Source: Prosthecodimorpha hirschii (GTDB lineage Bacteria; Pseudomonadota; Alphaproteobacteria; Rhizobiales; Ancalomicrobiaceae). From it: a stretch of 64,000 nucleotides of DNA. The notes below the pieces were generated by a model. That model was given only the letters and a program-made list of their open reading frames with translations. It was not told the DNA's origin and did not search any database. A program made the translations under genes and the position numbers. The DNA is taken from contig NZ_LJYW01000001.1 in NCBI RefSeq assembly GCF_001305515.1, positions 2,381,618-2,445,617 on the forward strand, read 5' to 3'. This document shows positions 14,389 to 54,779 of this stretch, one piece after another; the stretch's first letter is position 1; each line of letters begins with the position of its first letter.

Positions 14389-14418
14389 TCAGCACGCTGC
14401 GATTGTCGAATACTGCGC

Positions 14419-14450
14419 AAAGCCCGGACCGGTGGTCCGGGCTTTTCGTT
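14419..14450 (+). terminator. rho-independent terminator of rpsT
   Basis: AAAGCCCGGACC-GGT-GGTCCGGGCTTT perfect 12-bp stem followed by TTTCGTTTG. Confidence 0.85.
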
Positions 14451-14499
14451 TGTCCGGCTAACCTCAACGGCCCGCCCGGCGCCACCCAACCGGTTTCCG

Positions 14500-15000
14500 G
14501 AGAGACTCGGAAGGACCCGGGCTGATCAGAGAAATTTATGATATTCCAATATGTTACAAGAATGTTCCAAGAGCATCTGGAAAGGCCCGACACGGTCGAA
14601 GAGTCAAGGCCTTGATGGCAAAATTCTTGGCCGGCTGGTTTCCGATCCGGTCTCCGGAGCGGTCCCGACGGAGACCACATTGACTCCACATCGCTTCTCG
14701 ATATGAACCCGTTCTCGACGATTTTCCGAGTGCGGACTCTCGGCAACACCGGACCCCACCGGGGACTCGTCTCTGTTGCACCCTACGACCCCGCTGTGTA
14801 AAGTTGGGGTCATGAAGGGCCCGCCCTTCATGACCCTCAGACAAAATCCTGGGACACGGAGCTCATGATGAGCATTGGGCGCGTTATGCTCAAAAATGGC
14901 GAGTAAAATGCTCAGTTGAAAGTTCCGGGATCTAGTGTCGCGTTCCGTTCAATTCAAGAATAACTAATCTGAAACGAAGATAAAGGCAGCCAATGCCTTG
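14500..15000. promoter_or_regulatory. AT-rich non-coding region upstream of rhodanese/dnaA with strong palindromes (candidate dnaA control region)
   Basis: GC drops sharply vs flanks; 14-bp perfect IR GGGTCATGAAGGGC-cc-GCCCTTCATGACCC at ~14803-14832; further IR TGAGCAT-n10-ATGCTCA ~14873-14896. Confidence 0.4.
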
Positions 15001-15052
15001 CTTCGTCAAAGATTTTGGAATATGCGGCGCAGTCCGCATGCGGGGGCCGAGA

Positions 15053-15499
15053 ATGTCATTGATGACTGGCGAAGCCTACGCGGGGGATATCCCCCCTGCG
15101 GAGGCCTGGAGATTGCTGTCCGACAGCGGGCCGGCGCAGCTGGTCGATGTGCGTACCCGTCCCGAATGGTCTTTCGTCGGACTGCCCGAGCTGAGTGGGC
15201 TCGGCAAGGCGCCTCTCCTCATCGAGTGGCAGGTCTATCCCGAAATGGCTGTGGACGATGCTTTCGTGGACCGCCTGTCGGCGGCCCTCGATGGTGTCGG
15301 TGCGTCGCGGGAGGATCCCGTTCTTTTCCTGTGCCGGTCCGGCGTCCGCAGTCGATCCGCCGCCATCGCGGCGACCGCTGCAGGATGGCAGCGCTGCCTC
15401 AACGTCGCAGGCGGCTTCGAAGGCCCTCTCGATCCGAACGGCCATCGTGGCCAGCGGGACGGGTGGAAGGCTGCCGGACTTCCCTGGAAGCAAACCTGA
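15053..15499 (+). CDS. rhodanese-like sulfurtransferase domain protein
   Basis: LVDVRTRPEW...FLCRSGVRS active-site Cys loop; start ambiguous (ATG 15038 or 15053). Confidence 0.7.
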   Translation: MSLMTGEAYAGDIPPAEAWRLLSDSGPAQLVDVRTRPEWSFVGLPELSGLGKAPLLIEWQVYPEMAVDDAFVDRLSAALDGVGASREDPVLFLCRSGVRSRSAAIAATAAGWQRCLNVAGGFEGPLDPNGHRGQRDGWKAAGLPWKQT

Positions 15500-34756: not shown

Positions 34757-34914
34757 GGCGGTCTCCTCGCCTGCCTGAAGACCACGACGCCGCCGCCCGG
34801 GCAAGCCGCCAGGCGACGCGACCCGTCGCATCCGGGGTGTCGATCCGGCCGGTCGACCGTCGACGGCCTTGCGGACGATTGACAGGACGCGGATGCCGCG
34901 CCCATAAACGAGAA

Positions 34915-35125
34915 TGCGTAGGTCCCTCCTTCGAACGAGGGTGAAAAGGGAATGCGGTGATCCCGAAGGGGCTTCGGCCCGGCGGGCTACTCCGCAGCTG
35001 CCCCCGCAACTGTAAGCGGCGAGCTGTGCCGCCGAACGCCACTGGTCCCTCGGGATCGGGAAGGCGGCGGCCTCGGCGACGACCCGCGAGCCAGGAGACC
35101 TGCCGACGCATCCGATCCAGCCAGG
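34915..35125 (+). ncRNA. cobalamin (AdoCbl) riboswitch
   Basis: GGTGAAAAGGGAATGCGGTGA core, downstream B12 box GCCACTG (35038-35044); TTGACA -35-like at 34879; leader of cbtB-cbtA-cobW-cobN. Confidence 0.85.
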
Positions 35126-47656: not shown

Positions 47657-49213
47657 ATGGCCAACAAGTCCCTGTTCGCATCCTATATCGGGAAGCTGCT
47701 CCCGAAGGCGAATGCCAAGAATCGGCACGGGGCGCCGGCCTATGAGCTGTCGCCGCGCCACCGCCTCGCCCAGCTCGCCGCCACCGGCACGCTGAACGCG
47801 ACCTTCTATGCGGATGCCAAGGAGCAGCTCGACGCGATCCTGGCGCTCGCCCGCGAGGTCGACGCGACCTTCATCGCCAAGACGGCGGTCTATGCCCGCC
47901 GCAAGGGGGCGATGAAGGACATGCCGGCGCTCCTGGTCGCGCTCCTGTCGACGATGGCGACCGACCTGTTCGCGCCGGCCTTCGTCCGCACGATCGACAA
48001 CGGCCGCATGCTGCGCACCTTCGTGCAGATCATGCGGTCCGGGGCGGTCGGGCGGAAGTCGCTCGGCACGCGGCCGAAGCGGATGGTCCAGGCCTGGCTC
48101 GAACAGGCCTCCGAGGCCGAGTTGATGCGTGCCGCGGTCGGTGCGGATCCGTCGCTCGCCGACGTCGTCAAGATGGTGCATCCGCGGCCGGCCGATGCCG
48201 GACGGCGCGCCTTCTACGCCTGGCTGATCGGCAAGCCCTATGACGTTGCGGCCCTGCCGCCGCTCGTCACCGCCTTCGAGGCCTTCAAGCGCGATCCCTC
48301 GCTCGAAGTCCCGGAGGTGCCGTTCCAGATGCTGACCTCGATGCCGCTGACCGCGGCGCATTGGGCGGCGATCGCGGAGCGCGGGGGCTGGCAGATGCTG
48401 CGCATGAACATCGCCACCTTCGCGCGCCACGGCGTGTTCGAACGGCCCGGCATGGTCGAGCGGATCGCCCGCCGGCTCGCCGATCCGGCCGAAATCCGCC
48501 GGGCGCGGGCGCTGCCCTACCAGCTCATGGCGGCGCACGCCATGGTGGCCGGGACGGCGCCGGAGCCGATCGTGGCGGCGCTGCAGGACGCGCTGGAGAT
48601 CGCCCTCGCCAACGTGCCGAAGGTCAAGGGGCGCGTGGTCGTCTGCCCGGACGTGTCCGGATCGATGCGCTCCCCGGTGACCGGCTATCGTCGCGGCTCG
48701 ACCACGGCGGTGCGCTGCGTCGACGTGGCGGCGCTGGTGGCGGCGGCCTTCCTGCGCGCCAACCCGGACACGGAGGTGCTGCCGTTCGAGAACGACGTGA
48801 TCAAGCTCCGGCTCGATCCGCGCGACACGGTGACCACCAACGCGGCCAAGCTGGCGGCGATCGGCGGCGGCGGGACCAACTGCTCGGCGCCTCTGGAAAT
48901 GCTCGTCAAGCGGCATGCCAGGGTCGATCTGGTGGTGTTCGTCTCGGACAACGAGTCCTGGGTCGATGCCGCCGAGGCGCGCGGCTCGACGGCGCTGATG
49001 CAGGCCTGGACCCGGCTCAAGTCCTACAACAAGGACGCCAAGCTGGTGTGCATCGACCTGCAGCCCAACGCCACCACGCAGGCCGTCGATCGGCCGGACA
49101 TCCTCAATGTCGGGGGCTTCTCCGACGCGGTGTTCGAAACGATCGGCGCCTTCATGGAGGGCCGCTCCGCCGCCGACCACTGGGTCCGCGAGATCGAGGC
49201 GACCAAGCTCTGA
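47657..49213 (+). CDS. rsr: Ro60 ribonucleoprotein orthologue Rsr (TROVE domain + C-terminal vWA/MIDAS)
   Basis: 518 aa; TROVE-like N-terminal region and vWA motif VVCPDVSGSM...GGGTNCSAP, matching the bacterial Ro60 domain architecture. Confidence 0.8.
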   Translation: MANKSLFASYIGKLLPKANAKNRHGAPAYELSPRHRLAQLAATGTLNATFYADAKEQLDAILALAREVDATFIAKTAVYARRKGAMKDMPALLVALLSTMATDLFAPAFVRTIDNGRMLRTFVQIMRSGAVGRKSLGTRPKRMVQAWLEQASEAELMRAAVGADPSLADVVKMVHPRPADAGRRAFYAWLIGKPYDVAALPPLVTAFEAFKRDPSLEVPEVPFQMLTSMPLTAAHWAAIAERGGWQMLRMNIATFARHGVFERPGMVERIARRLADPAEIRRARALPYQLMAAHAMVAGTAPEPIVAALQDALEIALANVPKVKGRVVVCPDVSGSMRSPVTGYRRGSTTAVRCVDVAALVAAAFLRANPDTEVLPFENDVIKLRLDPRDTVTTNAAKLAAIGGGGTNCSAPLEMLVKRHARVDLVVFVSDNESWVDAAEARGSTALMQAWTRLKSYNKDAKLVCIDLQPNATTQAVDRPDILNVGGFSDAVFETIGAFMEGRSAADHWVREIEATKL

Positions 49214-49214
49214 A

Positions 49215-49376
49215 CCGGCCGGCCGATCCCGATCGGCCGGCCCACCGAACGACACCGCCGGCATCCGCCGGCCGGCCGGTCCCGATCGGCCGGACCACCC
49301 AAAGACGCCGCCGGCATCCGCCGGCCGGCCGATCCTGATCGGCCGGACCACAGAACGATACCGCCGGCATCCGCCG
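49215..49376 (+). repeat. three tandem ~53-bp repeats each with two hairpins (CCGGCCGATC-cc-GATCGGCCGG and GCCGGC-atcc-GCCGGC)
   Basis: Direct reading immediately after rsr stop; units at ~49215, 49268, 49321. Confidence 0.85.
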
Positions 49377-49450
49377 GCTGGGCCGACCGCCCGGCATCGC
49401 CCGGCCGGTCAGGCCATCGACAAGCCCCTGCCGGGTCCGCCCGGCAGGGG

Positions 49451-49528
49451 GGACGGCCGGGGGGAATGCTTCCGGGGACTCCATCGCTTCTCACGATCCA
49501 AAGTCCCAGGGTTTCGTCTCGTCCCCCC
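49451..49528 (+). ncRNA. short Y-RNA-like module 1 (G6-AAUGC ... GGGACU hairpin ... CUCGU-C6)
   Basis: GAATGC 49464-49469, GACTCCATC 49477-49485, hairpin GGGACT/AGTCCC, CTCGT 49518-49522, C6 49523-49528 pairing with G6 49459-49464. Confidence 0.5.
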
Positions 49529-49759
49529 GACCCGCTCTTTCCGGGGCCCTGCCGCCGGGGATCCGCGACGATCCCGGCGGCCGCGCTCCGAGCCGCCCGG
49601 CCGACGACAGTCGGCCGAACGATCATAACTTGCTGACGCCCGTCGGCCGACCGAACCGAACGTGCCGGTATCCGCCGGCCGATTGAAGCGGACCGGTCGG
49701 CAGCGACCGGCCGACCGTCAACCCATCCCTGCCGGGTCCGCCCGGCAGAACCGAAAGCC

Positions 49760-49827
49760 GGGGGGAATGCCTCCGGGGACTCCATCGTTTGTGACGACCC
49801 TGGTCCCCGGTTTCATCTCGTCCCCCC
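49760..49827 (+). ncRNA. short Y-RNA-like module 2
   Basis: Same architecture: G6 49760-65, GAATGC 49765-70, GGGGAC 49775-80 / GTCCCC 49804-09, CTCGT 49817-21, C6 49822-27; embedded in ~210-bp tandem unit. Confidence 0.5.
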
Positions 49828-49971
49828 GACCCGTCCGTCCCGGGTCCCGCCGCGCGCGGTCCTCGGGTGTCCCCGGGGGCGGCACCCCAACCAACCGAGC
49901 GACCGGCCGGCAGCGACCGGTCGGCCGTCAACCCATCCCTGCCGGGTCCGCCCGGCAAAACCGAAAAGGCC

Positions 49972-50038
49972 GGGGGGAATGCCTCCGGGGACTCCATCAC
50001 TCCCATGACCCAGGTCCCCGGAACAAACTCGTCCTCCC
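49972..50038 (+). ncRNA. short Y-RNA-like module 3
   Basis: G6 49972-77, GAATGC 49977-82, GGGGAC/GTCCCC hairpin, CTCGT 50028-32, CCTCCC 50033-38. Confidence 0.5.
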
Positions 50039-50169
50039 GGCTCGCTCTTCCGCCAGCCTCGCGTCCCCCGGCACCCGGATCTCCCGATCCCGGTGCCGGG
50101 GGCGGCGCCGATCAGCCAATGCGAAGCCGTGCCGCCACGTCCGGGCCTCGTGCCCGGGTGCGACGGCTC

Positions 50170-50220
50170 GTGGTTCGATCGAGCCGGATGGCACCCATCC
50201 GGCTCGCGAATCCGAACCAC
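50170..50220 (+). ncRNA. long interrupted stem-loop (8 bp + internal loop + 11 bp, loop CAC)
   Basis: GTGGTTCG-atc-GAGCCGGATGG-cac-CCATCCGGCTC-gcgaat-CGAACCAC. Confidence 0.5.
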
Positions 50221-50247
50221 CAACTCTTTGATGGCGTGGTCAATTCG

Positions 50248-50280
50248 ATCTGACATATGCGGGACGCACATGTCCGATTT
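50248..50280 (+). terminator. candidate rho-independent terminator within the RNA array
   Basis: ACATATGCG-gga-CGCACATGT stem (one mismatch) followed by CCGATTTTG. Confidence 0.4.
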
Positions 50281-50301
50281 TGACCACCAAGGCGGCCCGA
50301 A

Positions 50302-50381
50302 CCGGGCGGAGGGAATGCGGCATGGGACTCCATTCTTTGGGTGAACGACGGTCCCGCGCCTTGACTCGTCCCTCCGACCGG
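50302..50381 (+). ncRNA. short Y-RNA-like module 4
   Basis: terminal stem CCGGGCGGAGG/CCTCCGACCGG (one mismatch), GAATGC 50313-18, GGGAC...GTCCC hairpin, CTCGT 50365-69. Confidence 0.5.
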
Positions 50382-50396
50382 TTCGGACTGCTGTCC

Positions 50397-50530
50397 GGCC
50401 GAGACGAATGCCGAAGGAACTCCATCCAACGTGAATGGCGCGGGTTCAAATCCCGCCGGACCGGCAACGGGCCGTAGCTCAGCGGATAGAGCGTCATGTG
50501 CGATTCCTTCAAAGCCTCGTCGTCTCGGCC
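50397..50530 (+). ncRNA. YrlA-like Y RNA with circularly permuted tRNA-like domain (module 5)
   Basis: 10-bp terminal stem GGCCGAGACG/CGTCTCGGCC and second helix GAAGGAA/TTCCTTC flank internal loop AATGCC / AAAGCCTCGT. The interior holds a T-arm GCGGG-TTCAAAT-CCCGC (50440-56), an acceptor-like stem CGGACCG/CGGGCCG closed by a GCAA tetraloop, and a D-arm TA-GCTC-AGCGGATA-GAGC (50475-92). No anticodon arm; T5 tract follows at 50534-38. Confidence 0.65.
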
Positions 50531-50561
50531 ACCTTTTTCTCGAAACACGCGGCGCTCGGAA

Positions 50562-50729
50562 GGCCGCGGCGAATGCAGGCGGGACTCCATCGGTAAGCCC
50601 CAGGGCGAGAGGTTCGAATCCTCACGCCGGCTGCCGGCAGCACGGTTCGATCGGGCCACCAGGCCCGACCGGCACCGCAATGCTCTCGGCCGGCCGACGT
50701 TAACCCCGCCGCCTCTCGTCGCCGCGACC
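50562..50729 (+). ncRNA. divergent Y-RNA-like module 6 (two T-loop-like motifs, no canonical D-arm)
   Basis: terminal stem GGCCGCGGCG/CGCCGCGACC (one mismatch), GAATGC 50571-76, GGTTCGAATCC at 50611-21 and GGTTCGATC at 50644-52, CTCGT 50715-19. Confidence 0.45.
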
Positions 50730-50766
50730 TCCACCGCGCCGATCCGCAGCCCTATTCCGGCCGCAA

Positions 50767-50929
50767 GGCCGTGACGAATGCCGACGAAACTCCATCATTG
50801 TGCTGACCAGGTCGCGGGTTCGACTCCCGCCGGGTCCACCCTCGGGTGGCCCGTAGCTCAGCGGTAGAGCAGGGGCCGACGGCTCTCCGGAGCCCGAAGC
50901 CACGTTTCGTCCCCCTCGTCGTCACGGCC
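50767..50929 (+). ncRNA. YrlA-like Y RNA with circularly permuted tRNA-like domain (module 7)
   Basis: 10-bp terminal stem GGCCGTGACG/CGTCACGGCC, helix GACGAAA/TTTCGTC, internal loop AATGCC / CCCCTCGT; T-arm GCGGG-TTCGACT-CCCGC (50814-30), acceptor-like stem CGGGTCCACC/GGTGGCCCG closed by CTCG loop, D-arm TA-GCTC-AGCGGTA-GAGC (50854-70). Confidence 0.65.
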
Positions 50930-51159
50930 TCGCCGCCGGAATTGGGAGACCGTGCACTGCCCATTCTATTGTCCCCGCTATTGTTATTGTTAAGTCCACC
51001 ACGCGATATAATACCATTTCAGTCTGCTGGATGCTGTAGCCTAAGTAAGCACTCCGATCATATAAGCCAGACAATTTACTCGTTTACGGACGCAACATAG
51101 TTTGAAATGCGATTCCCGGCTATTCTCGTGAACTCAAAAGAATCAGCGAGGCCCGTCCG

Positions 51160-52398
51160 ATGAAACTAAGTAAAACCGAGATCGGAGAGAAATGGATAAG
51201 GCAATTCGCTATATGCGACCAACCCACGGCGGCCACTATGCTTGACGCGCTTATGTTATTAAATGAAGATCAGGTGTCCATCGCAATTAGGAGCACTCTC
51301 GACAGAATATGTAGAGGTTATCGCCATCGGAATAAGCGAATTGCCCTCTATGCAGAGCGAGAGTTTCAAGAGTCAGAAATTTTTCCTTCCATCCTCACGC
51401 CCGATCGCTACGGAGTACTTCGGCGGCGCGCTGTCGGATCGACAGGACCTTCAGCTGTTAAGCCGTTGCGCAATAGTCCTCGAGTCGGCAGCGAGGGGTT
51501 TATTGCTTTTCTAGCTTCTCAGCAGAAGGATGCATGGCCGAAAATTTTCAAAAACCATCCAGGTCCGGATCGCCTGCGCGCAAAATCGGCGCCGGCAGGC
51601 GAAATTATTATTCTCACGGATTTTATAGGTTCTGGAAATCGCATTCGCTCGATGCTTGATAAATTCTGGTCCGTCCCTAGTATCAAATCTTGGGTCTCGC
51701 GAAAATTAATCACTTTTCGAGTAGTTTCAGCGGCAGCAACAGATTCAGGTTTGAAAAATGTTCGACATCATAGACTAAGACCGGAAGTCATCAGTGAGTG
51801 GATCGCCCCAGTAGTTTATTCTTCTAGTTCACAAAATGTCAAGATCGAATGGTGTCAATTAATTGAAAACTACGGACCCCCGAACGGGCGCGGTTGTGGC
51901 AGATATGGTTTCGGTGGGGAAGCAGCTCTAATAGCATTCAGTTATCGCATTCCAAATAATACTCCTAACATTCTCCACCAAAGCGAAGGCGCATGGCACG
52001 CACTTTACGAGGGGCCCGCACCTACGGCACTATCTGCATTGTTTGGCATCCGCCCAATGTCACAGATCTTACAACTTGCCGCGTCAGCTAATGGAATTAA
52101 ATTGGAACCTTCGTTACTCGAATACGAAAAAAATATGATAATTATCTTAAGTCTTTTGCGCGGACGAATGTACACTGGATCAGAGATAGAATTAGCTGAG
52201 AAATGCGGAATTCCGGTTCCCATCATATTTGATATACTACGCGAAGCCTCGAAGAGAGGATTTATTACGAGCAATGGACGATTAACCGACGACGGCTATA
52301 AGTTTCTAAGGGCCGGCACCATCTGCGACAGGAAAAAACCTATCGTTGCAACTAGGCAAGAATCATATTATCCAAAATCGCTGAGGGTCCCACGATAG
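51160..52398 (+). CDS. retron-associated candidate effector: PRTase-like motif protein with C-terminal winged-helix-like region
   Basis: 412 aa, AT-rich codon usage; IIILTDFIGSGNRI resembles type I phosphoribosyltransferase PRPP-binding loop (hhhhxDhhxxGxx); directly upstream of retron ncRNA/RT, stop TAG embedded in TAGC next to a1. Confidence 0.5.
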   Translation: MKLSKTEIGEKWIRQFAICDQPTAATMLDALMLLNEDQVSIAIRSTLDRICRGYRHRNKRIALYAEREFQESEIFPSILTPDRYGVLRRRAVGSTGPSAVKPLRNSPRVGSEGFIAFLASQQKDAWPKIFKNHPGPDRLRAKSAPAGEIIILTDFIGSGNRIRSMLDKFWSVPSIKSWVSRKLITFRVVSAAATDSGLKNVRHHRLRPEVISEWIAPVVYSSSSQNVKIEWCQLIENYGPPNGRGCGRYGFGGEAALIAFSYRIPNNTPNILHQSEGAWHALYEGPAPTALSALFGIRPMSQILQLAASANGIKLEPSLLEYEKNMIIILSLLRGRMYTGSEIELAEKCGIPVPIIFDILREASKRGFITSNGRLTDDGYKFLRAGTICDRKKPIVATRQESYYPKSLRVPR

Positions 52399-52624
52399 CA
52401 TCTAGACTATGTCATTCGAAAGAATGGCCGTAATTGTGGATACTAATCCACTGTTGTGGGGAATGGAGTTTTCCATTGCCGTTGAAAGAGCACTCGAAAG
52501 CAGGTCCACGCCAGATCGTCCATCATGGCCCTTCGGGCCACCCCCTCGGAATGGCTCGGTTTGATGAACGATCCGGCGCGACTGGGCTGCGCTAAAGTAG
52601 ATGTCACACCCGTGGGACCCTCAG
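52381..52624 (+). ncRNA. retron non-coding RNA (msr-msd) bounded by 14-bp a1/a2 inverted repeats
   Basis: a1 CTGAGGGTCCCACG (52381-94) is exact reverse complement of a2 CGTGGGACCCTCAG (52611-24); TAGC immediately 3' of a1; internal hairpins GTGGAT-acta-ATCCAC, GGAATGGA-gttt-TCCATTgCC, GGCCC-ttc-GGGCC; a2 overlaps first codons of RT. Confidence 0.7.
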
Positions 52625-53755
52625 ACCTTCATATCAGGCGCCCGCAGTTTCGGTATCAGCGCGACAACCATCAACGCCTGCATTGCAACAGCAAATGCAA
52701 TAAAGAGAGTCCACCCCGACCTGCCGGTCATCTTTACGATCGAGCACCTTGCGCATTTAGTTGACGTTAACTCAAGTTTCCTGCAAGAAGTTGCCAATCG
52801 GAAGGTCGATGCATATCGTGTTTTCAGGGTAAAGAAGCGCGGCGTTTCCAATCTTGTGCCCACCCCTTCAAGGCGATACCGAACTATATGCGTACCAGAA
52901 CCGAATCTTATGAGGGTTCAGCGCTGGATAGCGCAAAATATTCTTCAAACAACGTCATCGCATGACGTAAGTTTTGCATTTATCAGGAATCGTGACATCA
53001 CAGATTCAGCGAAGCGCCACACTAATTCAAAGTGGCTAATCAAAATGGATGTGCGGCATTTTTTTGAGTCCATCTCTGAATCGGCAGTTTATCGCGTTTT
53101 TAGGTCTTTTGGGTACGGCGCGCTGCTATCTTTCCAAATGGCACGTATCTGTACACGACTACCCCGCTACAAAGGACGTGATGCTCCGCGGCTTCTCAGC
53201 CGAAGCGGCAAAGTACCATATCGTTCATATCCAATGGGGCACTTGCCACAAGGTGCACCGTCAAGTCCGATGCTTGCAAATCGTGCGGTTGAAGCACTCG
53301 ATTGCAGGCTCCAACGGATAGCACTTGGCGTAGGTTGGACCTACACTAGGTATGCAGATGATTTAGCATTTTCACGCACAACCACCGGAACACGCCACGA
53401 AGCGATGAGGCTGGTCAAACTTGTCGAGTACTCTTTGCGACATCACGGATTGGTGGCGCATCGCCAGAAGACCAGTATATCCCCTCCCGGTGGCAGAAAA
53501 ATTCTCCTAGGTATGCTAGTTGACACAGGTGAACCAAAACTCACTAAGGCGTTTCGTAATAACATCGAGACGCATCTCTATGCCCTTTTGCACAAAGATA
53601 TCGGCGCCGAACGGCATCGTGAGCATCGAGGTTTCTCATCGCTAATTGGAATGCGACGACATATATTAGGGCTGATCGCATACGCCCATCAAGTTAATAG
53701 TAAATACGCCTCTAAGCTTTACAAAAAATTCAATTCCGTTAACTGGATGCTATAG
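52601..53755 (+). CDS. retron-type reverse transcriptase
   Basis: 384 aa. Motifs: YRVFRVKKRG...RTICVPEPNLMRVQRWIAQNIL (RT0-1), LIKMDVRHFFESI (RT2), LPQGAPSSPMLANRAVEALD (RT4), YTRYADDLAFS (YADD, RT5), RKILLGMLVD-TG (retron VTG-region analogue). Start may be downstream of annotated ATG because it overlaps a2. Confidence 0.85.
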   Translation: MSHPWDPQTFISGARSFGISATTINACIATANAIKRVHPDLPVIFTIEHLAHLVDVNSSFLQEVANRKVDAYRVFRVKKRGVSNLVPTPSRRYRTICVPEPNLMRVQRWIAQNILQTTSSHDVSFAFIRNRDITDSAKRHTNSKWLIKMDVRHFFESISESAVYRVFRSFGYGALLSFQMARICTRLPRYKGRDAPRLLSRSGKVPYRSYPMGHLPQGAPSSPMLANRAVEALDCRLQRIALGVGWTYTRYADDLAFSRTTTGTRHEAMRLVKLVEYSLRHHGLVAHRQKTSISPPGGRKILLGMLVDTGEPKLTKAFRNNIETHLYALLHKDIGAERHREHRGFSSLIGMRRHILGLIAYAHQVNSKYASKLYKKFNSVNWML

Positions 53756-53978
53756 TAAATTAATGTTTTATTTTCAAATTGCACTAAGTGAATAATATAT
53801 AGTGAGAATCTGGGGTAAGAATTTTGATTCTTGAATGAATTCGCATCTACGTAAAAGATGCCCCACCCCTACGCCTTTCCCCTCATCTCCCCCGTTGACA
53901 CCCGTCCGCCGCCATCCTAACCTCCTTTCAAATAACAAAACGTCGTTTCATATAATGAAATGACCGGGACGGAAACAG

Positions 53979-54779
53979 ATGACGACCGAGGCGGACGACG
54001 CGTCGGGCAAGCTCGCGGGGGGGACCAGCACGCTGGATCTCGCGCTTCGGGTGCTCGACTTTCTGGTCGGCGAGAGCCGGCCCCAGGCGCTCGCGCAGAT
54101 CGCGGCGGCGCTCGGGGCGTCGAAGTCGACCGTCTATCGCCATCTGGTCACGCTCGGCCGGCACGGGCTGGTGCGCCAGGACCCGCAGACCGACCGCTAC
54201 GAGCCGGCCGTCAAGCTGGTCGTCTGGGGCGAGGCCGTCCGGGCGCGCTTCGACGTGATGACGGCGGCGCGCGACGTGATGGTGCGGCTGCGCGACGAGA
54301 CCGCCCAGGCGGTCACGCTGTGCGGTCCCATGGACGGCGGCGGGGTGGTGGTGCTGGAACTGATCCAGGGCCGCACCGTGATCGAGTTCGGCACCCGACC
54401 GGGCACCCGGCTCGACTATCACGCCTCCGCGCATGGCCGCGTCTGGCTCGCCTTCGGGGCCGCCGCGCGGCGCGAGGCGGCGCTCGCCGGCCCGCTGCGC
54501 CAGTGGACGCAGCATACCCTCACCGACCCGGCCGCGCTCCGGCGCGAGATCGAGGCGATCCGGGCGCGCGGCTGGGCCACCGCCCCCGACGAGATCGTCA
54601 TTGCCGTCAACGCCCTCGCCGCGCCGGTCTTCGACCATCGCGGCGAGCAGGTCGGCTCGCTCGCCATTGCCGGGCCGACGCAATTCATTCCCTCACCCCC
54701 CACCGAGGCCCAGATCCGGGCCGTCCTCGCCGCCGCACAGGACATCTCCCGGCAGCTGGGCTGGAGCGCGAAGCCATGA
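53979..54779 (+). CDS. IclR-family transcriptional regulator
   Basis: N-terminal HTH LAQIAAALGASKSTVYRHL plus IclR effector domain. Confidence 0.9.
   Translation: MTTEADDASGKLAGGTSTLDLALRVLDFLVGESRPQALAQIAAALGASKSTVYRHLVTLGRHGLVRQDPQTDRYEPAVKLVVWGEAVRARFDVMTAARDVMVRLRDETAQAVTLCGPMDGGGVVVLELIQGRTVIEFGTRPGTRLDYHASAHGRVWLAFGAAARREAALAGPLRQWTQHTLTDPAALRREIEAIRARGWATAPDEIVIAVNALAAPVFDHRGEQVGSLAIAGPTQFIPSPPTEAQIRAVLAAAQDISRQLGWSAKP

Follow-up and report, generated by a model that had tools for sequence, protein, structure and literature searches.

The window analysed here is a stretch of 64,000 nucleotides from the genome of Prosthecodimorpha hirschii (assembly GCF_001305515.1). The element in question is a short low-GC cassette that lies between the end of an rsr-Y RNA block, which comprises the Ro60 gene rsr and an array of tRNA-like Y RNAs, and the promoter of an iclR gene. 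The cassette appears to be an intact type III-A retron, made up of an effector gene, a non-coding RNA (ncRNA) and a reverse transcriptase (RT) gene. The slot that it occupies, from the end of the array to the iclR promoter, reads as a hotspot within the species in which other strains hold unrelated cassettes, and this slot is the main new result of our analysis. The features of the locus are as follows.

50750-50946, + strand: last tRNA-like Y RNA module ('module 7'), the left flank of the cassette and outside the insertion
50817-50838, + strand: tRNA-like core of this module (T-arm, acceptor 3' strand and discriminator), GGTTCGACTCCCGCCGGGTCCA
50948-53860, + strand: strain-specific cassette of 2913 nt, GC 0.471, delimited by homology breakpoints, GC and the GC of third codon positions (GC3)
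50984-51012, + strand: possible cassette-borne promoter, TTATTG-17 nt-TATAAT, as read from the sequence
51160-52398, + strand: retron effector of 412 aa with a phosphoribosyltransferase (PRTase)-like domain at the N terminus and a winged helix at the C terminus
52380-52625, + strand: predicted msr-msd ncRNA, overlapping the 3' end of the effector gene and the 5' end of the RT gene
52601-53755, + strand: retron RT of 384 aa with YADD at residues 251-254 (nt 53351-53362)
53861-53978, + strand: host right flank with the iclR promoter/operator region, comprising TTGACA at 53895, an AT-rich palindromic stretch and the operator-like CAAATAACAAAACGTCGTTTCATATAATGAAATG

The flank letters that meet the cassette are ...GGAATTGGGA at the left end and CCCCACCCCTACGCC... 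at the right start.

Composition and edges of the cassette

The GC content of the 64-kb window, calculated in 400-nt windows, has a mean of 0.708 (sd 0.036, n = 603) outside the low-GC segment and of 0.481 (range 0.425-0.542) inside it, which corresponds to a mean z of -6.2. Even the low-GC value that comes closest to the host (0.542) lies 4.5 sd under the outside mean. GC3 amounts to 0.91-0.93 in the cobM-like, Ro60, IclR, HyuA and HyuB genes; the PRTase gene has 0.42 and the RT gene 0.47. The published GC content of Prosthecomicrobium hirschii is 69% (PMC4653794). A first-pass annotation of this DNA had described a collapse of GC content and codon usage from about 50950 to about 53950. By the numerical profile, the shift from 0.71 to 0.48 is real. 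The strain comparison described below agrees with the left edge and moves the right one, which had been set about 100 nt too far, to 53860. Elsewhere in the window, GC falls under 0.60 at one place only (0.54-0.58), at about 14400-15300, where there are just short open reading frames (ORFs).

The edges were set by homology breakpoints, for which the window was aligned to contigs that encode an identical IclR protein; an exact look-up of this neighbouring protein gave 11 contigs. On the left, homology breaks at 50947/50948, that is 1-2 nt past the terminal stem of the last Y RNA. On the right it returns at 53861, so that some 35 nt separate the end of the cassette from the likely iclR promoter downstream. 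The whole of 50948-53860 is foreign DNA, and the earlier claim that such DNA lies directly beside the last tRNA-like Y RNA is borne out by the left homology break and by the shift in GC and GC3. The segment 53861-53978 is identical or near-identical in contigs L002, L003, L005, L008, L010 and L011, irrespective of the cassette that they hold. Because of this conservation across strains, and because TTGACA and an operator-like palindrome are found here upstream of iclR, the AT-rich part (53861-53960) is best regarded as conserved host regulatory DNA and not as foreign DNA. A metagenome contig from JGI (L001) is 100% identical to window positions 50896-54059, retron cassette included, and therefore the retron allele exists in nature.

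The PRTase and RT genes are the only sizeable ORFs of the cassette. The candidate promoter in front of them has a perfect -10 hexamer and a weak -35 hexamer and hence was not reported by the consensus scan; the number of sites found in the promoter and terminator scan was not above chance expectation.

The cassette carries a type III-A retron

The effector matches the Pfam families PRTase-CE (2e-17) and wHTH-PRTase_assc (1e-11) and, over residues 1-411, the PADLOC model PRTase_III-A (4e-102). It contains a phosphoribosyl pyrophosphate (PRPP) loop, IIILTDFIGSGNR, at residues 149-161, the motif Gx14PNNxP in the form GFGGEAALIAFSYRIPNNTP at residues 250-269, and the C-terminal peptide YYPKSLRVPR at residues 403-412. 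A comparison of the effector with the PDB sequences gave no match. The RT matches RVT_1 (Pfam, 1e-21) and RT_III-A (PADLOC, 6e-162), and its nearest relatives in the PDB are all retron RTs, the best being the Ec86 RT (2e-30). Both ORFs are full length and the catalytic motifs are present, and we regard the cassette, on its sequence, as an intact type III-A retron that is A3-like. The identification as a retron had already been made in the first-pass annotation and agrees with both PADLOC matches and with the covariation of the ncRNA described below. The A3-like subtype, as opposed to A4 or A5, is suggested by motifs and architecture, not by a tree.

The RT is 100% identical to an NCBI protein that bears the name of Prosthecomicrobium hirschii. 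Its closest other relatives are at most 75% identical and occur in other genera and in other contexts. In all eight relatives that were compared, the RT gene follows a PRTase-wHTH gene after a gap of about 200 nt, and the same layout is present on a Shigella IncF plasmid. The effector of this plasmid retron aligns with the window effector from end to end (27% identity, E 2e-33), including its C-terminal YYPRQLR, and the two RTs are 37% identical. With a GC content of 0.48, the retron module (51160-53755) differs from the sampled relatives (L130-L137, L051 and L052), which have 0.55-0.63 and are near the values of their own flanks (0.54-0.67). As the retron lies under all sampled relatives, its composition points to an unsampled source of lower GC content as the donor and to little time spent in the 0.71-GC genome.

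The retron ncRNA

The following elements of the ncRNA are predicted.

52380-52394 / 52611-52625: outer a1/a2 stem
52399-52404 / 52598-52603: inner stem, which takes in the RT start codon
52405: predicted branching G
52411-52428, 52429-52458 and 52459-52480: msr hairpins 1, 2 and 3
52503-52588: long msd hairpin

The intergenic gap is bracketed by a perfect 14-nt inverted repeat (52381-52394 / 52611-52624), and the ncRNA region has a minimum free energy of -112 kcal/mol (z = -6.8). For a comparative analysis, nine sequences were aligned, namely the window and eight relatives at 52-74% RT identity from Agrobacterium, Mesorhizobium, Bradyrhizobium and metagenomes. The predicted branching G is invariant in this alignment, and 29 of its 70 consensus pairs show compensatory double changes. 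In total, 93.1% of the alignment cells pair, as compared with 84.3% after shuffling (a value as high as that observed came up in 0 of 500 shuffles), and pairing drops to 36-47% when the partners are slid by 1-3 columns. No Rfam retron msr family matched at E <= 1, and the support for the ncRNA is thus comparative and does not come from a curated model.

Both arms of the outer stem are coding. The a1 arm (52366-52395 region) lies in the C-terminal ...LRVPR* codons of the effector and the a2 arm (52610-52625) in the codons of the conserved N-terminal PWDPQ of the RT; the compensatory changes have therefore arisen under a double constraint. Coding arms are likewise found in the Shigella plasmid homolog (L143), where a1 also begins in Leu-Arg codons.

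A strain-variable slot

About eight independent contigs define the hotspot, and five types of cassette were sampled in it.

Window: type III-A retron (PRTase and RT), + strand, 2.9 kb, GC 0.47
L002 (GCA_025942145.1): RT-trypsin fusion, predicted type XI retron (PADLOC 9e-180, L002:7917-9500), - strand, 2.0 kb, GC 0.465
L003, L006, L008, L010 and L011: HNH nuclease of 299 aa, - strand, 1.1 kb, GC 0.61
L005 (3695-6575): 201-aa ORF and 514-aa DUF6883 protein, mixed strands, 2.9 kb, GC 0.57
L004 (1158-3152) and L007: AT-rich adjacent genes for 157 and 262 aa, + strand, 2.0 kb, GC 0.415

Three of the five carry recognisable defence genes, namely the two retrons and the HNH nuclease, the latter matching HNH in PADLOC (2e-19) and, under the cutoff, a PT-DNA restriction-like family in NCBIfam (6e-29). 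The L005 cassette matches DUF6883 in Pfam only and nothing in PADLOC, NCBIfam or PHROGs, and for the L004/L007 cassette no match was obtained in PADLOC, Pfam, NCBIfam or PHROGs. Because of their position in the slot, both may represent uncharacterised systems of the defence or toxin kind.

The flanks of the slot are 96-99% identical between strains over at least 8-10 kb on each side, a divergence that is ordinary for one species. In the syntenic strains, the flanking ~10 kb on one side are made up of genes for cobalamin synthesis, and those on the other side of iclR, hyuAB and an ABC transporter. No mutual similarity was seen among the five cassettes (blastn, word size 7), and every one is lower in GC (0.415-0.61) than the host (0.71). 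Relatives with the same low-GC genes inherited vertically, which the first-pass annotation had named as the case against an insertion, were not found at this position: the contigs of the same species hold four other, unrelated cassettes.

Homology of the left flank ends at 50947 in L003 and L008, at 50940 in L002 and at 50838 in L004, L005 and L007. The right flank resumes at 53861 in L003, L008, L010 and L011, at 53865-53866 in L002 and L005, and at about 53873-53895 in L004 and L007. The type III-A retron and the HNH cassette hence share both junctions (50947, 53861) to the nucleotide.

Outside the species, a sister taxon with an IclR protein that is 70% identical has kept the iclR-hyuAB block with TauD upstream and without rsr; this locus seems to be a synteny breakpoint and not an empty site. 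A conserved 22-mer of the right flank had no match in a metagenome scan, the collection being one without this species, and an exact look-up of the HyuA protein gave no record.

Taken together, we consider it probable (about 0.8) that the window holds an intact retron of III-A3-like type which was acquired recently and horizontally, that it sits in a strain-variable slot with mostly defence-related contents, that cassettes are exchanged there by recombination in the flanks, and that the retron works by a mechanism like that of Retron-Eco11. The exchange between strains would most likely proceed by homologous recombination in the conserved flanks, and no mobility gene travels with the cassette. 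A recent turnover is suggested because the ORFs are intact, the a1/a2 repeat is perfect, the GC content is unameliorated, the slot is polymorphic between strains with 96-99% identical flanks, and an identical metagenome copy exists. For the same reasons, the view of the first-pass annotation that the insertion is old or degraded has to be given up.

Several points weigh against this interpretation. Plain flank recombination leaves unexplained why unrelated cassettes reuse the same junction nucleotides, that is 50947 and 53861 in the one case and 50838 in the case of L004 and L005. For two of the five cassettes no function can be recognised, and the term 'defence hotspot' is thus drawn from the remaining three. 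No contig contains an empty site, and the original insertion event can thus not be reconstructed. Finally, as the effector is just 27% identical to the enterobacterial homolog with which it was compared, a different trigger and even a different substrate are conceivable.

The last Y RNA and its tRNA-like core

The terminal stem of the last Y RNA is an inverted repeat (50750-50777 / 50919-50946) which encloses T-arm, acceptor-like and D-arm hairpins (fold -107.5 kcal/mol, z = -5.1). The module is conserved in L002, L003 and L008, and it gives a partial match to YrlA in Rfam at 50807-50873 (39.7 bits, E 8e-7) that remains under the gathering score. ARAGORN predicted neither a tRNA nor a tmRNA gene in the window, and therefore a genuine tRNA target is lacking there. 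The 22-mer core, GGTTCGACTCCCGCCGGGTCCA, occurs exactly in 61 IMG/VR contigs, where according to ARAGORN it mostly represents the 3' ends of tmRNA genes and in some cases tRNA-Ala(TGC) genes. In 34 of these 61 contigs it is directly followed by CCA, the corresponding letters in the window being CCC. The Y RNA thus appears to mimic specifically the alanine-type tRNA-like domain of tmRNA.

The number of Y RNA modules varies by strain. The window is about 211 nt, or one module, longer than L003, L005 and L006, a difference noted at window positions 49828-49901, and the arrays of L004 and L007 differ further in module number. Within the array (49215-50946), weak YrlB-like matches (49454, 49756, 49969 and 50303) alternate with YrlA-like ones (50401-50529 and 50807-50873), and the Rfam search of the window gave only such sub-threshold YrlA and YrlB matches in the array. 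A weak match to c4-a1b1 on the - strand (50648-50703, 25.3 bits as compared with a gathering score of 46.7) is probably due to chance. Over 13 nt, the acceptor-like hairpin of the last Y RNA (50844-50856, GGGTGGCCCGTAG) is 92% complementary to the tip of the msd hairpin (52531-52543, CTTCGGGCCACCC); as both are GC-rich hairpin tips, this is probably a chance similarity too. Further upstream in the window, a cobalamin riboswitch (Rfam RF00174, 129.8 bits) is located at 34903-35121 (+ strand), ahead of the cobalamin-biosynthesis genes that precede rsr.

Alternative explanations

The first-pass annotation had suggested that the Y RNA served as an attachment site. In its full form this would mean that a tRNA-targeting integrase put the retron element into the Y RNA as attB, and that integrase and repeats were later lost with age. 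Such a course of events would fit the cassette abutting the Y RNA within 1-2 nt, the identity of the Y RNA 22-mer with tmRNA and tRNA-Ala 3' ends, and the observation that E. coli defence hotspots are often located at tRNA or small-RNA genes (PMC10121019). It would also fit the fact that the unrelated L004/L007 and L005 cassettes both start exactly at the end of the 22-mer, right after ...GGTTCGA(C/A)TCCCGCCGGGTCCA (window 50817-50838), in strains where the 3' half of the last Y RNA is missing. The meeting of two independent cassettes at this 'discriminator' position is suggestive. The junction of the retron itself, however, is located 109 nt downstream of the core, at the foot of the terminal stem and outside the tRNA mimic. 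Neither an integrase nor a transposase is present in the retron cassette or in the four alternative ones (0 of 5 with an integrase), and the cassettes are not all oriented the same way. At its junctions, no cassette shows a target duplication or a terminal inverted repeat of at least 8 nt. Nor was any repeat of the attL/attR type detected: the 3' end of the Y RNA is present just once in the window even if up to 3 mismatches are allowed, the core occurs in the window inside the Y RNA array only, and none of the cassettes, L004 and L005 included, contains a remnant of it (attR). Moreover, the retron is intact and compositionally unameliorated, and loci with rsr in other genomes (see below) have RtcB and RtcA, but no integrase, among their 25 most frequent downstream neighbours. 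The lack of an integrase and of direct repeats had thus been described correctly, while we judge an attachment site for the retron to be unlikely; the idea retains some merit in a weaker form, for L004 and L005 alone.

A different possibility is a dedicated and precise exchange of cassettes, in which a recombinase encoded elsewhere reads fixed sites at the end of the Y RNA and upstream of the iclR promoter. We think this rather improbable, even though it would account for the junctions that the III-A retron and HNH cassettes have in common, for the left junction (50838) of L004 and L005, for the right junctions of L002 and L005 being 1 nt apart (53865, 53866), and for the reuse of junctions in spite of a dispensable zone of more than 100 nt. 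Against it speak the lack of common end motifs, terminal inverted repeats, attC-like structures or blastn similarity among the cassettes, their occurrence in both orientations, and the absence of a recombinase gene from the ~10 kb that flank the slot on each side in syntenic strains; with only five types of cassette, a coincidence under strong functional constraint is possible as well. A related conjecture, to which we likewise give little credence, is that the tRNA-like domain of the Y RNA, with its segment identical to tmRNA and tRNA-Ala 3' ends, serves as a decoy for attachment or recombination and gives rise to a landing pad for defence cassettes where the rsr-Y RNA array ends; a recombinase encoded elsewhere would then swap small cassettes, the retron among them, at a few fixed nucleotides. 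An integron or attC array was rejected since there is no intI nearby, the orientation of the cassettes is mixed and a common terminal structure is missing (attC was not searched with a dedicated model). Self-mobility driven by the retron was rejected as well, since junctions identical to its own occur in unrelated cassettes that lack an RT. An ancestral presence of the low-GC genes at this position, with loss or replacement in the other lineages, is hardly credible. The absence of an empty site from all contigs would agree with vertical inheritance, but composition (GC3 of 0.42-0.47 as compared with 0.92 in the flanking genes) and polymorphism (four other compositionally foreign cassettes in the same slot) contradict it. 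In addition, the closest RT relatives (<=75% identity) are found in other genera and different contexts, and the sister taxon has TauD directly upstream of iclR-hyuAB.

Retron and Ro60/Y RNA

A functional coupling of the retron to Ro60 and Y RNA had also been proposed. It could mean, for example, that the Y RNA or Ro60 modulates the retron or that Ro60 eases damage caused by the retron, the adjacency being selected. The retron is indeed located immediately downstream of rsr and the Y RNAs and on the same strand. In analyses of the Aravind type, RNA-repair systems and PRTase-CE proteins are reportedly both found in conflict contexts, which would count in favour of such a link.

A scan of GTDB representatives for Ro60 yielded 36 other rsr loci from several phyla, with Ro60 identities of 53-68% and one outlier of 43%, the best (68%) being those of Reyranella and Vineibacter. 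None of the 36 has iclR, hyu or cob genes nearby, and the scan could therefore not provide an empty site; a homolog of the window RT or PRTase is also absent from all of them. For 32 of these loci enough sequence was available to determine the downstream neighbours, the commonest of which were RtcB in 20 (often together with RtcA), RtcA in 8, a radical-SAM/B12/DUF4080 protein in 7 and Tpt1 in 2 cases, and the 25 most frequent families among them include no integrase and no RT. The rsr-Y RNA block of P. hirschii (47657-50946) has no rtcB after it, and the variable cassette slot is found at that place (the other loci are L014-L049). The neighbourhoods of the retron relatives, in turn, are unrelated and lack rsr; they include serine recombinases, AAA_21/SMC_N, SLFN_AlbA_2 and UvrD-like genes and, on the plasmid, IS26.

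Since the slot holds unrelated cargo in either orientation (on the opposite strand in the case of two of the other cassettes), since the relatives of the retron do without rsr and since 0 of 36 other rsr loci have this RT or PRTase, the adjacency of retron and Y RNA looks positional and not functional. Retron-Eco11, moreover, works in E. coli with its own three parts alone. A coupling of RNA surveillance with RT-based defence is therefore very improbable.

Significance of the locus

Retron and hotspot appear to illustrate known phenomena well, without amounting to a system of a new kind; the hotspot is conventional with one unexplained feature, which is the reuse of junctions together with the tmRNA-like core. 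Retrons of this type are also used in genome editing. To our knowledge, Retron-Eco11 is the only one to have been studied in the type III-A3 family, to which an alphaproteobacterial member with a well-supported ncRNA structure would now be added. An RNA family model, which Rfam does not have at present, could be built with the covarying alignment as its seed. As a single slot at the end of a Y RNA array holds at least five small cassettes in one species, two of them without annotation, it offers a cheap hunting ground for new defence genes, and it is a natural test of how cassettes without an integrase are exchanged. If it were true that the tmRNA-like core of the Y RNA is a recombination target, this would represent a new cost or function of tRNA mimicry.

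Comparison with known systems

Type III retrons have been defined by a PRTase-like effector, which in subtypes A3-A5 has a fused winged helix (Mestre et al. 2020, PMC7736814). Retron-Eco11 from E. coli EC2608 is a type III-A3 retron (Garcia-Rodriguez et al. 2025, PMC12746101). Its effector has 413 aa with the PRPP loop VVILTDTIGSGNQ, Gx14PNNxP and a C-terminal YYPxxLRxx, the latter peptide being that of cluster 67_3, subtype A3 (PMC12746101). Its ncRNA overlaps the 3' end of the effector gene and the 5' end of the RT gene and has three msr stem-loops, a 14-bp outer arm and an inner arm, the arms being parted at the effector stop codon; its RT belongs to clade 9 and is related to Ec86 (PMC12746101). 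All three parts are required, and they are sufficient in E. coli; phage helicases such as UvsW and D10 act as triggers, whereupon the PRTase is activated, PRPP is depleted and the infection is aborted (PMC12746101).

The window retron resembles Retron-Eco11 in its order of effector, ncRNA and RT on one strand, in its PRTase-winged-helix effector of about 412 aa, and in the PRPP loop (I/V)(I/V)ILTDxIGSGN, the Gx14PNNxP motif and the C-terminal YYPxxLR peptide that both effectors contain. After LR, the tail of the window effector is longer by one residue than the published YYPxxLRxx consensus, and its assignment to cluster 67_3 is a match by motif. Inverted repeats likewise overlap the effector stop and RT start codons, the stem in the window being split around the TAG stop, and the 14-bp outer arm, the three msr hairpins, the long msd hairpin and an RT nearest to Ec86 are further common traits. 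Unlike in Eco11, the inner arm has 6-7 bp instead of the 11 bp reported, the host is an alphaproteobacterium, and the identity to enterobacterial homologs is low (27% for the effector and 37% for the RT of the Shigella plasmid copy). By analogy to Eco11, from which the anti-phage mechanism is taken over here, the RT would produce multicopy single-stranded DNA (msDNA) from the ncRNA, priming at the conserved G52405, and a complex of RT, msDNA and effector would restrain the PRTase. A factor encoded by the phage (for Eco11, helicases) might then switch the PRTase on, PRPP would be depleted and the infected cell would abort the infection.

The 3' ends of tmRNA (ssrA) and tRNA genes are classic targets of islands and prophages with tyrosine integrases. 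The locus is like such islands in that the 22-nt core is identical to tmRNA and tRNA-Ala 3' ends and the L004 and L005 cassettes start at its last nucleotide. It is unlike them in that an integrase and a duplicated core (attR) are absent, the interrupted RNA is not restored, and the junction of the retron itself lies outside the core.

The closest parallel to the slot as a whole is provided by the core defence hotspots of P. aeruginosa (Johnson et al. 2023, PMC10250203) and the hotspots of E. coli (Hochhauser et al. 2023, PMC10121019), where a fixed slot between conserved genes also holds cargo that varies by strain and mostly concerns defence, and where the mode of mobilisation is often not identifiable either. 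The slot of P. hirschii differs from them in being flanked by a Ro60-associated Y RNA array instead of a tRNA gene, in holding one very small system per strain (1.1-2.9 kb), and in the reuse of its junction nucleotides.

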